In this document: positions 31,539 through 42,455 of the stretch, piece after piece | Layout of the letters: each line of letters starts with the position of its first letter | Numbering within the stretch: position 1 is the first letter of the stretch | Assembly (NCBI GenBank): GCA_945860705.1 | Contig: CAMART010000003.1 | Coordinates: 56,643-120,642, forward strand | From: Chitinophaga pinensis | GTDB lineage: Bacteria > Bacteroidota > Bacteroidia > Chitinophagales > CAMDFR01 | DNA length: 64,000 nt | Direction: 5' to 3' | The notes under the pieces: generated by a model | What the model was told of the DNA's origin: nothing | What the model saw: the letters and a program-made list of their open reading frames with translations, nothing else | The model's database searches: none | Made by a program: the position numbers and the translations under genes

Positions 31539-34500
31539 ATGAAGAAAATTCTACTACTACTATTCAGTGTTTTTTCCTTTGCGCTTGCCTACTCTCAGCC
31601 ATATGGCAATGAGTGGATTAATTATTCTCAACCCTACTATAAAATAAAAGTGGCTTCTGATGGGATTTATCGAATTCCATATACTACATTAAATTCTTCT
31701 ATACCTGGTTTAAGTTCTTTGACTGGTGCCAATTTTACTATGTATCACAATGGAGTAAACATACCAATATATGTAACTACTGCAGGTACTCTTAGTAGTA
31801 GTGATTATATAGAGTTTATGGGTAGAAAAAATGATGGCAAGCTGGAAACTTCTTTATATAAAGACAGTATCTATCAGATGCACGACTTATTTAGTTTGTT
31901 TAGTGATACGAGTTCATTTTATCTTACTTACAATACACTATCTAGCAATCCCCGATTTATAAATACTATAAATGATATGACTTCTCTTCCCGCACGAGAA
32001 GAGTATTTTATGTATACTGCTAGAAAACTAAACACAAATGCCTATTCATACGGACGTGGATATAATATAGCTGGTTCAACTTTATACGACAGTGAGTTTG
32101 ATATGGGTGAAGGATGGTTGGGTACTGACTTTGTAGGAACTACAGTCAATAATAATATTAGTACACCAAATGCATATACACTCGGTCCAGCTACAGCAAG
32201 TATTCGTTCGGTAATATTTTCAAAATCATTCAACAACCATAGAATCAGCGTAACACATAATGGCAACTTACTTGTAGATTCTACAAGATTTGGATATTAC
32301 TTATGGAAGTTTAATCATACAGTACCTATTTCTACTATCACAGCTACCAGCAATGTATCTATAGATGCCCAAGACCCAGACAATGATAGAAATGCTATTT
32401 CGTTGATAGAAATTACCTATCCGAAAATTTTTAATTTTGAAAACTTAAGTACATATGAATTTACTATAACAGCAGGTGCAAGAAAGTATATAGAAATCAC
32501 CAATTTCAATAATCGTTCTACAACACCAATTCTATATGACTTAACAAATAACTTACGTATCACTGGAGTGATAGTAGGTACTACTCTTCGTTTTGCTCTA
32601 CCCGCTTCTAGCCAAGATAGACAATTATACTTACGTAGTGATGCAACTGTAGATTATAAAACAGTGAGCAGTATTAGTACTGTCAATTTTGTAGATCTTC
32701 GTTCTCTATCCTCTCAAGGAGATTATATTATTTTATCAAATTCAAAATTATTTGATGATGGAACTGGTACAAATTGGGTAGAAGAATATAGAAAATATAG
32801 AGATATAGGTTCATCTACTACAGGTACATTTTATGCAAGAACTATTGATGTAGAGCAAATCTTTGAACAATTTGGATACGGTGTACCAAAATCACCTGTA
32901 GCTTATAGAAATTTTATATCCTATGCACTAGATGTTTGGACTATAAAACCAAAATATTTATTTCTTGTAGGAAAAGGAAGAGAATACAATGCACAAAGAA
33001 ATGGAGGTAGTACATTTAATGCAAATTTAGTCCCTTCATTTGGATATCCAGCTAGTGATGCTATGGTCACAGGTTCACAAAGCAACTATTTACAACGTGT
33101 GGCTACTGGAAGATTAGCTGCAGATAATGGTACCGAAGTAAAAAATTATTTTGAAAAAGTAGTACAATACGAAGCTGAACAAAGAACTTTTGGAGATCCT
33201 TATCAAACTATAGATAAAAAAGGATGGATGAAGGAAGTACTGCATCTTGGTGGAGGTACTACTACATTTGAACAAACTGAATTTAGAGGATATTTAAATA
33301 GTTTTGAAAATAGAATAGAAAGAGATTCTTTTGGAGCTCATGTAAATTCACTTTATAAAAGCTCTACTGCTCCAATAGATGTGACCGCTACAGAATATCT
33401 AAAAGCTAGAATTGATAGTGGCATATCATTGATGACATTTTTTGGACACTCAGCTTCAGGTACTTTTGATATAAGTATAGATGAACCAGAAAACTATAAT
33501 AATACAGGAAAATATCCAGTCATATATTCAAATGGATGTTTTGCAGGAGATATTTTCACGTCTGGTACGGGTATTAGTGAGCGTTTTGTATTGACTCCAC
33601 AAAAAGGTGCTATTGCATTTATAGCAAGTACAGGTCTTTCATTATCTACATCACTATTTTCATATGGAACATCTTTATACAATTCTTTCTCTGGAAAAAC
33701 ATATGGTAAAGGTCTCGGAGATCATATAAAACAAGCCGTAGCAGAAATGAAATCTTCTGCTTATTTATACAATGAATTACTTGCACATGAAGTAGCGCTG
33801 CATGGCGACCCTGCTATCAAGCTCAATAATTATTTAGCACCCGATTATATGATTAGTCCTCAAACAGTATTTTTCAATCCACCTGTTATAACTGCTAGTC
33901 TAGACACTTTTGAGCTAAATGTAGTGACTACAAATTTAGGAATGGCTATCGTAGATTCGTATGCTATAGAAGTAACAAGAATTTTATCTGATGGTTCTCA
34001 AATTTTATATAGACAAAATGTAAAAGCTCCTTACTATAGAGATACTACAATATTTAAAATACCAACGCTTCTTAGCGGGGGAACTAGTGGACTTGGTATT
34101 AATAATTTTAGTGTGTATGTTGATGTTGATGACGAAGTACCAAGTGAACTAAGCGAATCTAATAATTATATACTTAATGCGGTAAGTACGACTATTCAAA
34201 GTGAAGATATTTTACCTATATATCCATACGAATTTTCTATTGTACCACAACAACCCATCACTTTCAAAGCAAGTACTGTTAATCCATTTGCTGCACCTAG
34301 ATGGTATGTATTTGAAATGGATACTACTGAACTTTTTAATAGCTCTATCAAACAGCAAATGAAAGTATATCAAAGTGGAGGAGTGGTGCACTTCACACCA
34401 TCGTTTTTGTATAGAGATAGTGTAGTATATTATTGGAGAGTGAGTAAAGATTCTACATCAGCTACAGATGGATATTCTTGGCATAACTCATCTTTTATTT

Positions 34501-36578
34501 ATATCACTGGCGAATACCCAGGCTGGAATCAATCTCATTACTATCAATGGTTAAAAGATGACTATAGCAATGTATATATGGACAATGATAGAGTACTCAA
34601 ATTTGTACCAGATATAAAAGCAATAGAGGTAAATACTGGTCTGTGGAATGGATACGGAGGACCTACCACTTTTGAACGTATAGAATGGAAAATAAATGGA
34701 GCTAATATGCATCGTGCACGTATGATTGGTTGTGGTGCTACTTATGGTATCAATATAGCTGTGATCGATCCTGTATCTGGTTTGCCATGGTTTTCTACAG
34801 TTACAGCTGGAAGTAATTATAATCCAAAATATGGTAGTTATCATTGTAGTTATCAGCCAAATGACCAATATGCATTTACTTTTAGAACTACTGGAACTCA
34901 TCCTACGCTTGGTATTCCATGGTCAGAAGTGATTACAAATTTTATTGATTCTATTCCTGCAGGATATTATATACTTATTTATAGCCAAAACAAACCTCTG
35001 TATACAGCTTGGGATGTATCACTTCGTAGTAAAATTTTAGGACTAGGCGCTACACAATTATTAGATTTATTGAGTGGAGTAGCAGAAGGGCCATATGCTT
35101 TCTTTTGCAAAAAAGGAGATCTCACATATCCAATTCAAGAGCAATATAAAAATAGTTGGAGCCAACAAGTATATATGGCATTCAATATAACAGGTAGATG
35201 GAATCAAGGTTCGTTTATTTCACCAAAGATAGGCCCATCAAGAGAATGGGGAAGTGTACATTGGAGATTTAGCTCACAAGATAGTCCCAAAACAGATATA
35301 GAAAGTATGGATATAATTGGTGTTGATGCTGGAGGTATTGAAACAAATTTAAAAACATTGACCTCTACACTCGATACAAATATTACTTTTATTGATGCAT
35401 ATATTTACCCATACATACGACTAAGATACAATACGTATGACTCTATCAATAGAACTCCTACACAGCCTTATTACTGGAGAGTCCTATATAAAGAAGTGCC
35501 TGAAATAGCTTTAAATCCATCTATATTTTTCAAGCTCACAAAAGATACTATGCAACAAGGAAATATTCTCAACTTACAATGTGCTGTAGAAAGTATAGTA
35601 GATATAGACATGGATAGTCTTTTAGTAAAATATGATGTGCGTGATGCAACACATACTACCAATTTATTTTTCAATAGAGGTGATAGTATCAAAGGACTTG
35701 ATACTATGAATATCAATTTTGATTTGAATGTACTTGGCAACAATTATGTAGGACTCAACTATCTAGTAGTAGAACTCAATCCAAACAATGATCAACTCGA
35801 ACAATATCATTTTAACAATTATGGATTGCTTCAATTTTTTGTAAAAGGGGATGATGTAAATCCACTACTCAATGTGACTTTTGATGGAAGACATATACTC
35901 AACGGTGATATAGTGAGTGCTAAACCAAATATCATGATTACTCTAAAAGATGAAAGTAGATTCCTAGCATTGGATGACACTTCAGCAATAGATGTGTCAC
36001 TCAAATATCCTGATGGAGGTATGAGACGAATCAATTATGATAATAATATTCTTACATTCTTCCCAGCAGATGCAGGCAGACTGAATATAGAAAATAAAGC
36101 ACGAGTAGATTTCAAACCACTACTCACATCAGATGGTACCTATGAACTCATCATCACAGATAAAGATAAAAGTGGTAATGTATCGCATAGAAATAATTAT
36201 AGAATACAGTTTGAAGTGATCAATAAATCTACTATCAGTAATGTACTGAACTATCCAAATCCATTTACTACCAAAACTAGATTTGTGTTTACACTTACTG
36301 GATATGAAATACCTACCTACTTCAAAGTGCAGATATATAATGCTACAGGCAAAGTAGTAAAAGAAATCACACAAGATGAACTAGGCCCAATAGTGATCGG
36401 CAGAAATATGACTCAATACGCATGGGATGGTACAGATGAGTATGGCGATGCTCTAGGCAATGGAGTTTACTTCTATAGAATAGTGAGTACTATCAACGAC
36501 GAGAAAATAGAACATAGAGAAGAAAGCTATGATAAGTTCTTTAAAAAAGGATTTGGAAAGATGCTCTTGATAAGATAG
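31539..36578 (+). CDS. Peptidase C25 (gingipain-fold) protein, PorU2-like, with CARDB/Ig-like region and T9SS C-terminal domain
   Basis: GNEWI..Q.YYKI N-domain, ATGRL, FFGHS (His) and NGCFAG (Cys), LHGDPA, C-terminal NYPNPF...WDG...NGVYFY. Confidence 0.88.
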   Translation: MKKILLLLFSVFSFALAYSQPYGNEWINYSQPYYKIKVASDGIYRIPYTTLNSSIPGLSSLTGANFTMYHNGVNIPIYVTTAGTLSSSDYIEFMGRKNDGKLETSLYKDSIYQMHDLFSLFSDTSSFYLTYNTLSSNPRFINTINDMTSLPAREEYFMYTARKLNTNAYSYGRGYNIAGSTLYDSEFDMGEGWLGTDFVGTTVNNNISTPNAYTLGPATASIRSVIFSKSFNNHRISVTHNGNLLVDSTRFGYYLWKFNHTVPISTITATSNVSIDAQDPDNDRNAISLIEITYPKIFNFENLSTYEFTITAGARKYIEITNFNNRSTTPILYDLTNNLRITGVIVGTTLRFALPASSQDRQLYLRSDATVDYKTVSSISTVNFVDLRSLSSQGDYIILSNSKLFDDGTGTNWVEEYRKYRDIGSSTTGTFYARTIDVEQIFEQFGYGVPKSPVAYRNFISYALDVWTIKPKYLFLVGKGREYNAQRNGGSTFNANLVPSFGYPASDAMVTGSQSNYLQRVATGRLAADNGTEVKNYFEKVVQYEAEQRTFGDPYQTIDKKGWMKEVLHLGGGTTTFEQTEFRGYLNSFENRIERDSFGAHVNSLYKSSTAPIDVTATEYLKARIDSGISLMTFFGHSASGTFDISIDEPENYNNTGKYPVIYSNGCFAGDIFTSGTGISERFVLTPQKGAIAFIASTGLSLSTSLFSYGTSLYNSFSGKTYGKGLGDHIKQAVAEMKSSAYLYNELLAHEVALHGDPAIKLNNYLAPDYMISPQTVFFNPPVITASLDTFELNVVTTNLGMAIVDSYAIEVTRILSDGSQILYRQNVKAPYYRDTTIFKIPTLLSGGTSGLGINNFSVYVDVDDEVPSELSESNNYILNAVSTTIQSEDILPIYPYEFSIVPQQPITFKASTVNPFAAPRWYVFEMDTTELFNSSIKQQMKVYQSGGVVHFTPSFLYRDSVVYYWRVSKDSTSATDGYSWHNSSFIYITGEYPGWNQSHYYQWLKDDYSNVYMDNDRVLKFVPDIKAIEVNTGLWNGYGGPTTFERIEWKINGANMHRARMIGCGATYGINIAVIDPVSGLPWFSTVTAGSNYNPKYGSYHCSYQPNDQYAFTFRTTGTHPTLGIPWSEVITNFIDSIPAGYYILIYSQNKPLYTAWDVSLRSKILGLGATQLLDLLSGVAEGPYAFFCKKGDLTYPIQEQYKNSWSQQVYMAFNITGRWNQGSFISPKIGPSREWGSVHWRFSSQDSPKTDIESMDIIGVDAGGIETNLKTLTSTLDTNITFIDAYIYPYIRLRYNTYDSINRTPTQPYYWRVLYKEVPEIALNPSIFFKLTKDTMQQGNILNLQCAVESIVDIDMDSLLVKYDVRDATHTTNLFFNRGDSIKGLDTMNINFDLNVLGNNYVGLNYLVVELNPNNDQLEQYHFNNYGLLQFFVKGDDVNPLLNVTFDGRHILNGDIVSAKPNIMITLKDESRFLALDDTSAIDVSLKYPDGGMRRINYDNNILTFFPADAGRLNIENKARVDFKPLLTSDGTYELIITDKDKSGNVSHRNNYRIQFEVINKSTISNVLNYPNPFTTKTRFVFTLTGYEIPTYFKVQIYNATGKVVKEITQDELGPIVIGRNMTQYAWDGTDEYGDALGNGVYFYRIVSTINDEKIEHREESYDKFFKKGFGKMLLIR

Positions 36579-36586
36579 ACTTTATT

Positions 36587-36652
36587 AGTTACAAGTTCAA
36601 AGTTACAAGTTAATAGTTACAAGCTTGCCTGACGGCAGTCAGTTTCAAAGTT
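36587..36652 (+). repeat. AGTTACA/AGTTCAA heptamer tract interrupted by a 20-bp hairpin insert (36624-36643)
   Basis: agttaca agttcaa agttaca agttaat agttaca ag[cttgcctgacggcagtcagt]ttcaa agtt. Confidence 0.85.
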
Positions 36653-36700
36653 GATGTTAAATATTAAAAATATTCACTTAGTCTTCTCAACCGGCTCATC

Positions 36701-36806
36701 TTCCCCTCTTGAGAGGGGTTAGGGGTGTGTTTATGAAGTTGTATAAGTCACGAAGCAATTGAGAGAGCCTGTTCCGCTATAGCGGGAGGTTAGGGGTGTG
36801 TTTATG
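36701..36806 (+). repeat. Two copies of a REP-like element CCCCTCT-TG-AGAGGGG-TTAGGGGTGTGTTTATG; second copy truncated and interrupted
   Basis: ggttaggggtgtgtttatg identical at 36717-36735 and 36788-36806; insert cctgttccgctatagcggga at 36768-36787. Confidence 0.85.
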
Positions 36807-36815
36807 TAAAATAAA

Positions 36816-37136
36816 AGATGCCTCCTTCCTCGGCATTTCAAAATGTAATTTCATTATCACAATTAGTTTGTCATTCTGACGAAGGAAGAATCTAATAGTA
36901 TATCAATCAAATTATAGATGCCTCTTTCCTCGGCTTTCAAAAGGAATATATTATCGCAATTAGTTTGTCATTCTGACGAAGGAGGAATCTCTATTAATTT
37001 CAAGTAAAAAAGATGCCTCTTTCCTCGGCATTTCAAAAAGCAAATATTTTATTACATTATGCTTGTCATTCTGACGAAGGTAGAATCTAATAATATGTAT
37101 TTCAAAGTTAGATGCCTCCTTCCTCGGCATTTCAAA
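36816..37136. repeat. Alternating dual-repeat (BIME-like) array A-B-A-B-A-B-A, period 95-100 bp
   Basis: A = AGATGCCTCYTTCCTCGGC(A)TTTCAAA at 36816, 36916, 37011, 37110; B = GTCATTCTGACGAAGGWRGAATCT at 36870, 36967, 37065. Confidence 0.93.
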
Positions 37137-37184
37137 GAATAAAATTTGTACAATAATTTAACTTTGGAATATCATATCTGCTAA

Positions 37185-41514: not shown

Positions 41515-42321
41515 ATGCATCCGACTATAAAATGGTTTTTTTTTATTGTTTGTGTCACTACAACACACAACCCTGTTTTATCTATGATTGTATTGGTTGT
41601 ATTTTATCTCATACAACTAAGTTTTGATTCAAGCATCAATAATGATGAAGGCAACACAGAAAAAGAATACTACAGACCTGAGAGAAACAATGAACATGCA
41701 GATATTGGACTTATATATTTAGCAGCATATGTGATGCAAATAGAAAGTATCATACACCATAATCAAGTAATGTATATCAAAAAATTTCTATCGAGAAATT
41801 TTGATGAAGAACATGTAAATAGCCGTATGAATTTACTCAATAGATTGCTACATATGAATATTTCTTATGAGGATGGTTGTAGAAGAATCATGTACTATTA
41901 TGAAATAGAAAACAGATATAAAATAATCGATTTTTTATTTAGTTTGGCCGCATCAGATGGAAGAGTATCCTATTATGAAATGAGTGCTATTAGACGTATA
42001 GCCCAGACACTATATGTAGATGAAAATCAGTTTGAAAGACTAAAAAAAATCTACTATAAAGAAAATGAAAGTGAACGAAGACAAAGAGAAAGACCTACTA
42101 CCTTTACATTTACATCTATTGAAACTCATTATTCAAAACTGGGATTGAGTAAAGAAGCTAGTATTGATGATTTGAAAAGTTCTTATAGAAAATTAGTACT
42201 CAAATATCACCCTGACAAATGGATCAGCGCATCTAAAGTAGACCAAGAGAAAGCAAAACAACAATTCATACAAATACAAGAAGCCTACGATAAAATCAAA
42301 GAACACAAAGGGATAAAATAG
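41515..42321 (+). CDS. DjlA-like co-chaperone (TM + TerB-like + C-terminal J domain)
   Basis: LAASDG...E TerB-like segment; YSKLGL...YRKL..KYHPDK J domain. Confidence 0.88.
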   Translation: MHPTIKWFFFIVCVTTTHNPVLSMIVLVVFYLIQLSFDSSINNDEGNTEKEYYRPERNNEHADIGLIYLAAYVMQIESIIHHNQVMYIKKFLSRNFDEEHVNSRMNLLNRLLHMNISYEDGCRRIMYYYEIENRYKIIDFLFSLAASDGRVSYYEMSAIRRIAQTLYVDENQFERLKKIYYKENESERRQRERPTTFTFTSIETHYSKLGLSKEASIDDLKSSYRKLVLKYHPDKWISASKVDQEKAKQQFIQIQEAYDKIKEHKGIK

Positions 42322-42333
42322 TTCAATAAAACA

Positions 42334-42406
42334 AGTTATAAGTTTAATGTTACATGTTCAAAGTTTAAAGTTATTAGTATGCCTTACTACTGTCAGATTC
42401 AAAGTT
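42334..42406 (+). repeat. Second AGTT-heptamer tract with a degenerate 20-bp insert (42378-42397)
   Basis: agttata agtttaa tgttaca tgttcaa agtttaa agttatt ag[tatgccttactactgtcaga]ttcaa agtt. Confidence 0.75.
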
Positions 42407-42408
42407 TT

Positions 42409-42443
42409 AAATCTAAAATCTAACGTATAGTATCTAGCATCTA
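42409..42443 (-). repeat. Five TAGATAC-family heptamers
   Basis: Minus strand reads tagatgc tagatac tatacgt tagattt tagattt; same family as 22434-22468. Confidence 0.7.
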
Positions 42444-42455
42444 AAGACTTGCTTC

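Follow-up and report, generated by a model that had tools for sequence, protein, structure and literature searches.

A 20-base REP-like hairpin element with base-precise edges in Chitinophaga pinensis and other bacteria

Introduction

Repetitive extragenic palindromic sequences (REPs), which are palindromic repeats of 20-40 bp with a terminal tetranucleotide GTAG or CGTC, have long been known; some occur within other palindromes, and some are located in frame in genes, including genes for tRNA synthetases (PMC3733652). The GTAG- and CGTC-tagged superfamilies of these short repeats occur with REP-associated tyrosine transposases (RAYTs, also named TnpA-REP), which are Y1 HUH enzymes (PMC3733652; PMC6006769; PMC3116915), and REP-RAYT pairs have been described as lineage-specific and mostly vertically inherited (10.1101/2022.05.22.493013). 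Here, we describe a 20-base hairpin element, named the CCTGACGGCAGTCAGG family, that is present in a 64,000-nt stretch of a Chitinophaga pinensis draft genome (GCA_945860705.1, contig CAMART010000003.1, positions 56,643 to 120,642). This whole stretch is referred to as the window (G000:C3:56643-120642), and window coordinates are given on the + strand; the genome itself (G000) comprises 2.94 Mb in 46 contigs, with a G+C content of 31.5%.

Several other described systems share features with this element. IS200/IS605 insertion sequences and their miniature derivatives move by peel-and-paste on single-stranded DNA. Their ends comprise a hairpin of ~20 nt whose 5′ foot bears a guide tetranucleotide, and insertion takes place 3′ of a short specific sequence, with no duplication of the target (PMC6006769). 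Ssn nucleases, which have a GIY-YIG domain, cut single-stranded DNA 5′ of the hairpin repeats SRM and NTS; the identity of the loop is not needed, and loops can be extended (PMC11893778). Rickettsia palindromic elements (RPEs) have been found inserted in frame in protein genes (cited in PMC3733652). Lastly, the occurrence of intergenic direct heptamer repeats of the TAACTGA type has been reported for Beggiatoaceae, Cyanobacteria, and a small number of Bacteroidetes (PMC4679880), in passages that make no mention of hairpins interrupting heptamer tracts.

The Element and Its Edges

The element is a real, discrete, non-coding, REP-like micro-element with base-precise edges. Its consensus is C-Y-T-G-C-C-T-G-A-C-G-G-C-A-G-T-C-A-G-G (also written C-Y-TGCCTGACGGCAGTCAGG), its commonest form is CCTGCCTGACGGCAGTCAGG, and its termini are CYTG and CAGG on both strands. 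The 20 bases form an imperfect palindrome, which can be read either as an 8-bp stem (CCTGCCTG paired with CAGNCAGG) that contains one C.T mismatch and is capped by an ACGG loop or, as in a first-pass annotation of the window, as CYTG followed by a hairpin with a 6-bp stem. Among single-mismatch relatives in a sample of 401 genomes of the phylum, position 16 is the most variable (G, A, C), which fits the 8-bp stem with a free mismatch and the ACGG loop. Forms with T at position 2 mostly have AA before the element (23-25 of 28 instances) and often TT after it, extending the stem. One variant, CCTGCCTGTCGGCAGACAGG, which is present in three tandem copies with a 76-bp period (locus L250, G356:C5), is altered at positions 9 and 16 (A>T and T>A), with the 6-bp-stem reading preserved.

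Instances of the element begin and end sharply. Position 1 is C in 114 of 119 instances from a genome collection, even though the search pattern left this position free, and a purine precedes the element in 109 (G in 58 and A in 51), while the information content falls to <=0.15 bit beyond this preceding base and to <=0.18 bit on the other side of the element. A purine also precedes 109 of 118 metagenome instances. In 14 of the 119 genome instances, the element is located at or near the loop within perfect outer stems of >=6 bp (versus 0.8% of shuffled pairings), and perfect direct repeats of >=6 nt flank only five. The element is present as a whole 20-base unit, directly behind a purine (AG, AA, or CG) and without target duplication, mostly where secondary structure is tolerated or formed (i.e., in short tandem tracts, in loops of hairpin repeats, and at 3′ ends of genes); now and then it is found in surface loops of proteins, with only in-frame outcomes surviving.

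The edges can be read directly in genus g158 (genomes G212 and G356), in which a GTCAT-type hairpin repeat occurs in an empty form (tGTCAYN CTGAG CYTGTCGAAG NRTGAC; 20 distinct copies) and in a filled form with exactly the 20-mer between CTGAG and CTTGTCGAAG (seven copies). The outer stems of the filled copies differ (GTCACA/TGTGAC, GTCATA/TATGAC, CAAT/ATTG, and others), while five filled copies from G212 share a private C13T change. The context of CTGAG and CTTGTCGAAG is found again in 2 of the 119 genome instances and 3 of the 118 metagenome instances.

Our best explanation, which we hold with about even confidence, is that the element is a non-autonomous micro-element of the REP kind that is mobilised in trans on single-stranded DNA. 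A trans-acting enzyme would excise or copy the element and insert it again as single-stranded DNA. This would most likely be an HUH Y1 enzyme of the RAYT/IS200 kind; enzymes of this kind recognise a hairpin along with the tetranucleotide at the foot of its 5′ side, and no duplication results from their action (PMC6006769). The DNA before some copies resembles the element's own start (CCTGCCGCG directly before CCTGCCTGACGG, and GCCTGCCTGCCG directly before CCTGCC; L357:2490-2525 and nested instances such as L165 and L170); the element may prefer self-like targets or arise with help of microhomology.

The CCTGACGGCAGTCAGG element is apparently undescribed, although palindromic REPs of similar size have long been known. 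Its sequence was in no paper found, and a topic search found no such element in Bacteroidota, with the supplementary tables on REPs and Ssn repeats left out of these searches. Rfam gave 0 matches at gathering score in the window and no match at the element's position in the element-bearing loci of genome G037. The first-pass annotation had proposed an element family smaller than miniature inverted-repeat transposable elements (MITEs) and possibly undescribed; this proposal overlooks the 20-40-bp REPs (PMC3733652).

Copies in the Window and in the Genome

Copy 1 (CTTGCCTGACGGCAGTCAGT) is located at positions 36624-36643 (nhmmer E 1.9e-5); two of its bases, at positions 2 and 20, deviate from the commonest form. 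It starts 46 bases past the stop codon of a gene encoding 1679 aa (31539-36578). Directly 3′ of this stop codon is a tract of 5.3 AGTTNNN heptamers (36587-36623), identified from the sequence, the list of open reading frames (ORFs), and a Tandem Repeats Finder (TRF) period of 7; this tract is the host to the left of the copy. Copy 1 splits a heptamer of this tract between AG and TTCAA (...AGTTACA AG / TTCAA AGTTGAT, with the slash marking the element), so that deleting the 20 bases restores AGTTCAA; the remainder of the split heptamer (TTCAA) and two degenerate units, seen in the sequence, follow at 36644-36660.

A decayed copy (TATGCCTTACTACTGTCAGA; 42378-42397), which shares the length of 20 bases and the AG/TTCAA junction, has an equivalent setting (AGTTATT AG / TTCAA AGTTTTA). 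On its left is a tract of AGTTNNN/TGTTNNN heptamers (42334-42377; sequence, ORF list, and tandem-repeat search), located 3′ of the stop codon of a gene encoding 268 aa (41515-42321); on its right are the remainder of the split heptamer, then AGTTTTA and two AATCTAA units (42398-42423; sequence and tandem-repeat search). The decayed copy matches copy 1 at 13/20 positions, for which the probability (>=13/20) is 5e-5 at the composition of the genome itself. Folded as single-stranded DNA, copy 1 reaches -3.7 kcal/mol (z -2.1) and the decayed copy 0 kcal/mol, i.e., its hairpin is lost. Copy 1 is nearly intact, and that at 42378 is undergoing decay in the absence of selection; both are located between convergent genes. 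AGTTNNN tracts are often followed by a second type of 7-base tract (AATCTAA, TATCTAG, CTTGCTT...), e.g., at 42403-42455 in the window, and the order of tract types recurs at gene junctions in this genome.

The first-pass annotation had assigned these two copies and a third unit, located at 36768-36787, to a single family. The three 20-base sequences, their position directly after AG, and the absence of a flanking duplication beyond the heptamer period are as it gave them; two of the units (36624 and 42378) belong to one family, and the third (36768) forms another hairpin and falls outside the CCTGACGGCAGTCAGG family.

Further copies are numerous. The 18-base core has six exact matches in G000, four with one mismatch, one with two, and three with three (at <=1 mismatch, 10 matches versus 0 for the reversed control), and a profile search found 15 good copies (E <= 0.011) as well as weaker ones. 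Decayed members include the copy at 42378 and a 19-base copy on contig C19, for a total of 15 good and two decayed copies; copies on C12, C34, and C2 are decayed as well. A purine precedes the element in 17/17 copies (AG 12, AA 4, TG 1). Thirteen of the 15 good copies lie in or against AGTTNNN tracts, which (counted strictly, with >=3 units) make up 2093 bases, or 0.07% of the genome; two of the 15 (contigs C8 and C14) have ATTAGCA-type repeats on either side. The split heptamer reads TTCAA in 9/13 copies, versus 22% (66/299) of units overall ending in CAA. Nine non-heptamer interruptions of 20 bases occur in the AG/TT phase, and 7/9 belong to the CCTGACGGCAGTCAGG family; an eighth family member among interruptions in this phase is 19 bases long. 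Under the explanation that we favour, the element would have ridden into, or spread within, the AGTTNNN tracts of G000.

The tracts also bring up an account that we consider rather unlikely, namely that the element is a passenger without an enzyme of its own, which entered a repeat family once per lineage and then spread by recombination, gene conversion, or slippage via the repeated flanks (heptamer tracts in G000 and GTCAT-type hairpins in g158). All 13 tract-borne copies in G000 are in one and the same phase, whole blocks of heptamers plus element are present in G000 and absent from the same two junctions in its congeners G001 and G003, and the filled copies of G212 and G356 share both their flanks (CTGAG and CTTGTCGAAG) and a private variant, all of which would follow from such spread. 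It leaves unexplained, though, why the identical 20 bases are found in the unrelated, non-repeated flanks of >200 stretches and why the edges are sharp and a purine precedes 92% of instances. A general link to tandem tracts was rejected: outside genus g1, tracts were proximal in 2/114 instances versus distal in 1/114.

The two sites in the window were compared with the corresponding loci of G001 and G003 (L061, L062, L073, L074), and both repeat mosaics (36579-37184 and 42322-42455) are specific to the species. At the first site, G001 and G003 carry an ordinary terminator hairpin (AAAAAGCGCTTCgatGAAGCGCTTTTTT) and no tract; at the second, the two genes nearly abut, with almost no spacer. These loci were therefore rejected as orthologous empty sites for the two window copies, since the whole tract is missing, not the element alone. 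In contigs of four further runs, copy 1 is covered with 0 differences; one run has 42375 T>A just before the decayed copy and 42387 C>A within it. The 7-kb stretch around the finding has >=0.96 of its sampled words in 20 public runs labelled as lake water metagenome, 16 of which are flagged as possible sources.

Copies in G000 are intergenic in 16/17 cases. With 8/15 intergenic copies between convergent genes near 3′ ends, the element could be a hairpin kept by host selection as a protein-binding site, an RNA stabiliser, or a terminator. The terminator hairpin of the relatives at the first window site, where G000 has tract plus element, would suit this idea, as would the identity of the core (18/18) between G000 and G001 in the leucyl-tRNA synthetase gene (leuS) despite differing heptamers. 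We nevertheless consider it very unlikely: copies decay freely (the lost hairpin at 42378-42397 and the copies on C12, C34, C2, and C19), 5/16 point against the transcription of the neighbouring gene, some are inside coding sequence, no T run follows the hairpin, Rfam has no match in the window, and the distribution is sporadic (29/401 genomes, with 1-10 matches each).

In-Frame Copies in Protein-Coding Genes

One copy in G000 lies outside the window in leuS (G000:C31:16885-19662), which encodes a 925-aa leucyl-tRNA synthetase (LeuRS). Here, AGTTCAR heptamers and the 20-mer (C31:18760-18783) are inserted in frame between the conserved motifs NWIGRSEGA and FTTRPDT, and the insert reads ..VQS LPDGSQ VGS... 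Of 30 LeuRS loci listed for 41 relatives, 12 were aligned. The stretch from GRSEGA to FTTRPDT is 84 nt long in G002 and G004 (no heptamers and no element), 105 nt in G003 (three heptamers and no element), 132 nt in G001 (four heptamers and the element), and 111 nt in G000 (one heptamer and the element), while the insert is absent from seven LeuRS sequences from other genera. These lengths equal 84+7k+20e, where (k,e) is (0,0), (3,0), (4,1), and (1,1); staying in frame demands k = 0 mod 3 without the element and k = 1 mod 3 with it, as observed, which supports an element of exactly 20 bases. The core is identical (18/18) in G000 and G001 at the same place, where the surrounding heptamers differ. 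The G001 form exceeds the G003 form by 27 nt (the element and one heptamer), a change that could also represent one in-frame copying from another tract, as spread through repeated flanks without a dedicated enzyme would have it. With 0, 3, 4, and 1 heptamers among congeners, leuS also presents a heptamer tract evolving inside an essential gene.

Proteins other than LeuRS carry the element as well. Among ORFs beside 130 metagenome copies, there are 19 pairs of copy and ORF in which the element is well inside an ORF of >=80 aa, and ORFs with strong Pfam matches include CoaX, phosphoglucomutase, threonyl-tRNA synthetase (ThrRS), and FlgK-like and HerA-like proteins; the element is translated as LPDGSQ, PDCRQAG, or LTAVRQ. 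For ThrRS, an alignment of the query protein with nine of 120 listed homologues showed residues similar to LPDGSQG in 5/10 proteins, between YYDFLLPR and xxAPEDL, whereas 4/10 lack exactly those seven residues and 1/10 has a two-residue form. The close ThrRS homologues are labelled as candidate-phyla bacteria by their sources.

Distribution across Genomes and Phyla

Among the 41 relatives, the core (<=1 mismatch) is present in G000, G001 (seven matches), G003 (four), G037 (five), and G025 (three), with 0 matches for the reversed control; G037 and G025 belong to two families other than that of G000. The core was not found in G002 (87% complete) or G004 (84% complete). In the sample of the phylum, the 18-mer (<=1 mismatch) occurs in 29 of the 401 genomes, and its reversed control in two.

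The exact 19/20-mer was found in at least 118 stretches in a scan of one genome per species and in at least 124 stretches of metagenome contigs, with unrelated flanks in both sets; the existence of further copies, which the first-pass annotation had left to a wider scan, is thereby established. Among the first 80 of the at least 118 genome stretches, sorted by record titles (bin labels can be wrong), the matches listed are mostly from Bacteroidota and include six Omnitrophota, five candidate-phyla (Patescibacteria), and three WOR-3 records, as well as three contigs of one Treponema bin, three Nitrospirota/Thermodesulfovibrionia, two Ignavibacteria, two Planctomycetales, and single others. A phage origin was rejected, with only four stretches in viral contigs.

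This breadth invites a bolder proposal, which we consider unlikely. No self-contained mobile DNA seen so far would be smaller than the 20-mer, a "nano-element" whose movement in trans would depend on neither a flanking RAYT nor Ssn but on another enzyme, possibly a widespread single-strand nuclease/ligase, host- or plasmid-borne. Its targets would be the single-stranded loops that hairpins and slipped repeats form, and it would cross phyla often enough to account for 20/20 identity in Bacteroidota, Omnitrophota, candidate-phyla bacteria, and others.

Some copies are part of larger repeats, suggesting that the element could be what is left of a larger mobile element, as a scar or as fused ends (e.g., joined insertion sequence ends or an excision footprint). 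All five copies in G037 are located in one shared mosaic repeat of ~630 bp, in one metagenome contig pair a repeated sequence next to a DNA methylase gene (Pfam) contains the element, and the two halves of the element, read from the sequence, are permuted rather than simple inverted repeats. This origin is nonetheless highly improbable in our judgement, as no larger element with these ends was seen, the 129 ORFs neighbouring metagenome copies are ordinary housekeeping genes, and viral contigs account for only the four stretches mentioned above. The lack of a Y2_Tnp (IS91 type) match in G000 is uninformative, since the control genomes were equally silent. The mosaic repeat of G037 was seen at four or more loci (L019-L022), with 86-94% identity and no ORF of note.

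Candidate Enzymes

Seven Y1_Tnp matches are present in G000 outside the window (contigs C21, C44, C6, C2, C14 with two, and C18), one IS200-like (147 aa) and six of 131-211 aa, with motifs that fit subclasses 1.2, 2.1, and 2.6 as tabulated in PMC6006769. Most of these genes are flanked by their own, different hairpins (e.g., CACACAAGCACCGCT..., CGGGTGGCACACCCGACA, and TCGATGCGTG..CACGCATCGA), and several distinct pairs similar to REP-RAYT systems are present in this genome. The two small GIY-YIG genes of G000 adjoin other hairpins, not the 20-base element. A 135-aa GIY-YIG ORF (G000:C2:209952-210356) is located beside a tRNA-like stretch and is followed by GTTCCGAAGCTTCGGAAC-type hairpins, a family that is also found within heptamer tracts of G000 and G003.

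Several observations weigh against mobilisation in trans by such an enzyme. No 20-mer-like sequence (<=5 mismatches) was found within ~1.5 kb of 30 Y1_Tnp/GIY-YIG loci from six genomes (G000-G004 and G037), and the 129 ORFs within 400 bp of metagenome copies include 0 Y1_Tnp and one GIY-YIG match, the rest being ordinary. No Y1 subtype tracks the presence of the element among the five congeners; a gene similar to subclass 1.2, for example, is present in G000, G003, and G004 and was not found in G001, while the element is present in G000, G001, and G003 and was not found in G002 or G004. Repeats make up the flanks in both genera that have several copies; recombination between such repeats would yield an equally constant junction. 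Filled and empty alleles, which the first-pass annotation had named as a check, occur among repeat copies (seven versus 20 in g158) and homologous genes (leuS and ThrRS), but no empty allele was found between strains in the contigs of the four further runs, which drop rare variants. The inserts in coding sequence comprise 21 and 27 nt, not 20; the copy number is low (1-10 matches per genome in the sample of the phylum), unlike that of classic REPs; and orientation shows no bias relative to GC skew (11/17, not significant, in a draft genome with weak skew).

Near these loci and among these ORFs, the HUH link drawn in the first-pass annotation found no counterpart, and it stands by analogy only. 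Since no cognate enzyme was found, the HUH Y1 mechanism is suggested by anatomy only, i.e., by the hairpin, the 5′ tetranucleotide, the absence of duplication, and the conserved mismatch.

Neighbouring Repeats

The unit at 36768-36787 (CCTGTTCCGCTATAGCGGGA) consists of CCTG and the palindrome TTCCGCTATAGCGGGA, and folds at -3.6 kcal/mol (z -2.4). As the first-pass annotation had it, this unit interrupts the second copy of a repeat. The long form, located at 36759-36806 and identified from genome copies and its fold, consists of TTGAGAGAG, CCTGTTCCGCTATAGCGGGA, and GGTTAGGGGTGTGTTTATG; the short form, at 36700-36735 (CTTCCCCTCTTGAGAGGGGTTAGGGGTGTGTTTATG; sequence and genome copies), lacks a 36768-type unit. 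The long form (TTGAGAGAG, unit, and GGTTAGGGGTGTG, with a right arm that also reads GGTTAGGGGTGTGTTTAT) has four copies in the genome (contigs C3, C8, C41, and C4), and the short form (TTGAGAGG-GGTTAGGGG...) has two (36700-36735 and contig C25); the 36768 hairpin spreads only as part of the long form. Spread of 36768-type units across the order was rejected, with matches (<=2 mismatches) in 9/301 genomes versus 9 for the reversed control, i.e., near noise; multi-copy matches (G230 and G026) are parts of other hairpin repeats.

Perfect hairpins with a 6-bp stem and a 4-base loop number 516 in G000, and CCTG precedes seven of them versus 0.9 expected. A superfamily of CYTG plus any 16-base hairpin, in line with the pattern proposed in the first-pass annotation, was rejected, as all seven CCTG-preceded hairpins belong to the two types already known and no wider superfamily emerged.

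Behind the long form lies a tandem repeat with a 97-bp period and 3.3 units (36809-37136; TRF score 385, and seen in the sequence). Each unit carries a GATGCC..GGCATTTC hairpin (GATGCCTCCTTCCTCGGCATTTC) and a GTCAT-type hairpin (TTGTCATTCTGACGAAGGAAGAATCT); this repeat is a neighbouring mosaic, outside the element. In one run, a 5-base insertion (TAAAA) is present behind 36806, before the 97-bp repeat, along with a 1-base insertion inside the repeat.

Significance and Comparison with Known Systems

Short palindromic repeats are usually lineage-specific and linked to an enzyme, whereas this element is base-identical in distant phyla, low in copy number, and adjoined by no enzyme gene, making it a compact test case for the movement of very short DNA. 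It also marks where inserts are tolerated, namely in tandem tracts, in loops of other repeats, and, within aminoacyl-tRNA synthetases, in surface loops. For annotation, it accounts for odd seven-residue LPDGSQ, PDCRQAG, and LTAVRQ inserts in proteins that are conserved elsewhere and for breaks in heptamer tracts. If an enzyme that reads the 20-mer on single-stranded DNA were found, it would represent a site-specific single-strand tool whose specificity is known and very short.

As with IS200/IS605 elements, filled and empty hairpins (in g158) differ by exactly 20 nt without duplication, and the insertion follows a purine. IS200/IS605 elements, however, have two different ends and cleavage sites off the hairpins, whereas the element is one hairpin, with edges at the tetranucleotide and the stem foot, and has no linked transposase. 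The SRM and NTS repeats of Ssn systems are likewise short hairpin repeats scattered in intergenic DNA, here in the same genomes, and the element is found seven times in loops of GTCAT-type hairpins. In contrast to SRM, it does not match HGTCWYN(0-2)YYVSBRHN(0-5)WNVSBRGN(0-2)RNCYNB on either strand, has no GTC[AT][CT] start, and is absent from the flanks of both small GIY-YIG genes in G000; Ssn is a nuclease, and we know of no insertion activity for it. MITEs, with terminal inverted repeats, target-site duplication, and lengths of 70-300 bp, differ from an element of 20 nt with direct repeats of >=6 nt in 5/119 instances.

The host tracts of G000 resemble the heptamer repeats of PMC4679880 in being 7-base direct repeats at gene junctions in Bacteroidota, but these tracts are the landing ground and not the element, and no link to tracts is seen outside genus g1.

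RPEs, which are ~100-150 bp long and are not known outside Rickettsia, are comparable as palindromic selfish DNA that is tolerated in frame in essential genes (here, leuS and the ThrRS gene), whereas the element has 20 bases and is spread over phyla. The similarity to REPs is the broadest: the element is 20 nt long with an imperfect stem and a conserved tetranucleotide at the 5′ foot, is mostly extragenic and located between convergent genes, and is sometimes nested in palindromes and sometimes in frame in tRNA synthetases. The element is thus REP-like, yet it departs from REPs in three features of membership, namely the tag (CYTG, not GT[AG]G or CGTC), the copy number (1-17 copies per genome, not tens to hundreds), and the flanking RAYT gene, as no Y1 transposase-like/RAYT gene is flanked by it in the manner of a REP-RAYT pair (REPtron); also unlike REP-RAYT systems, it presents the same 20 bases in several phyla.

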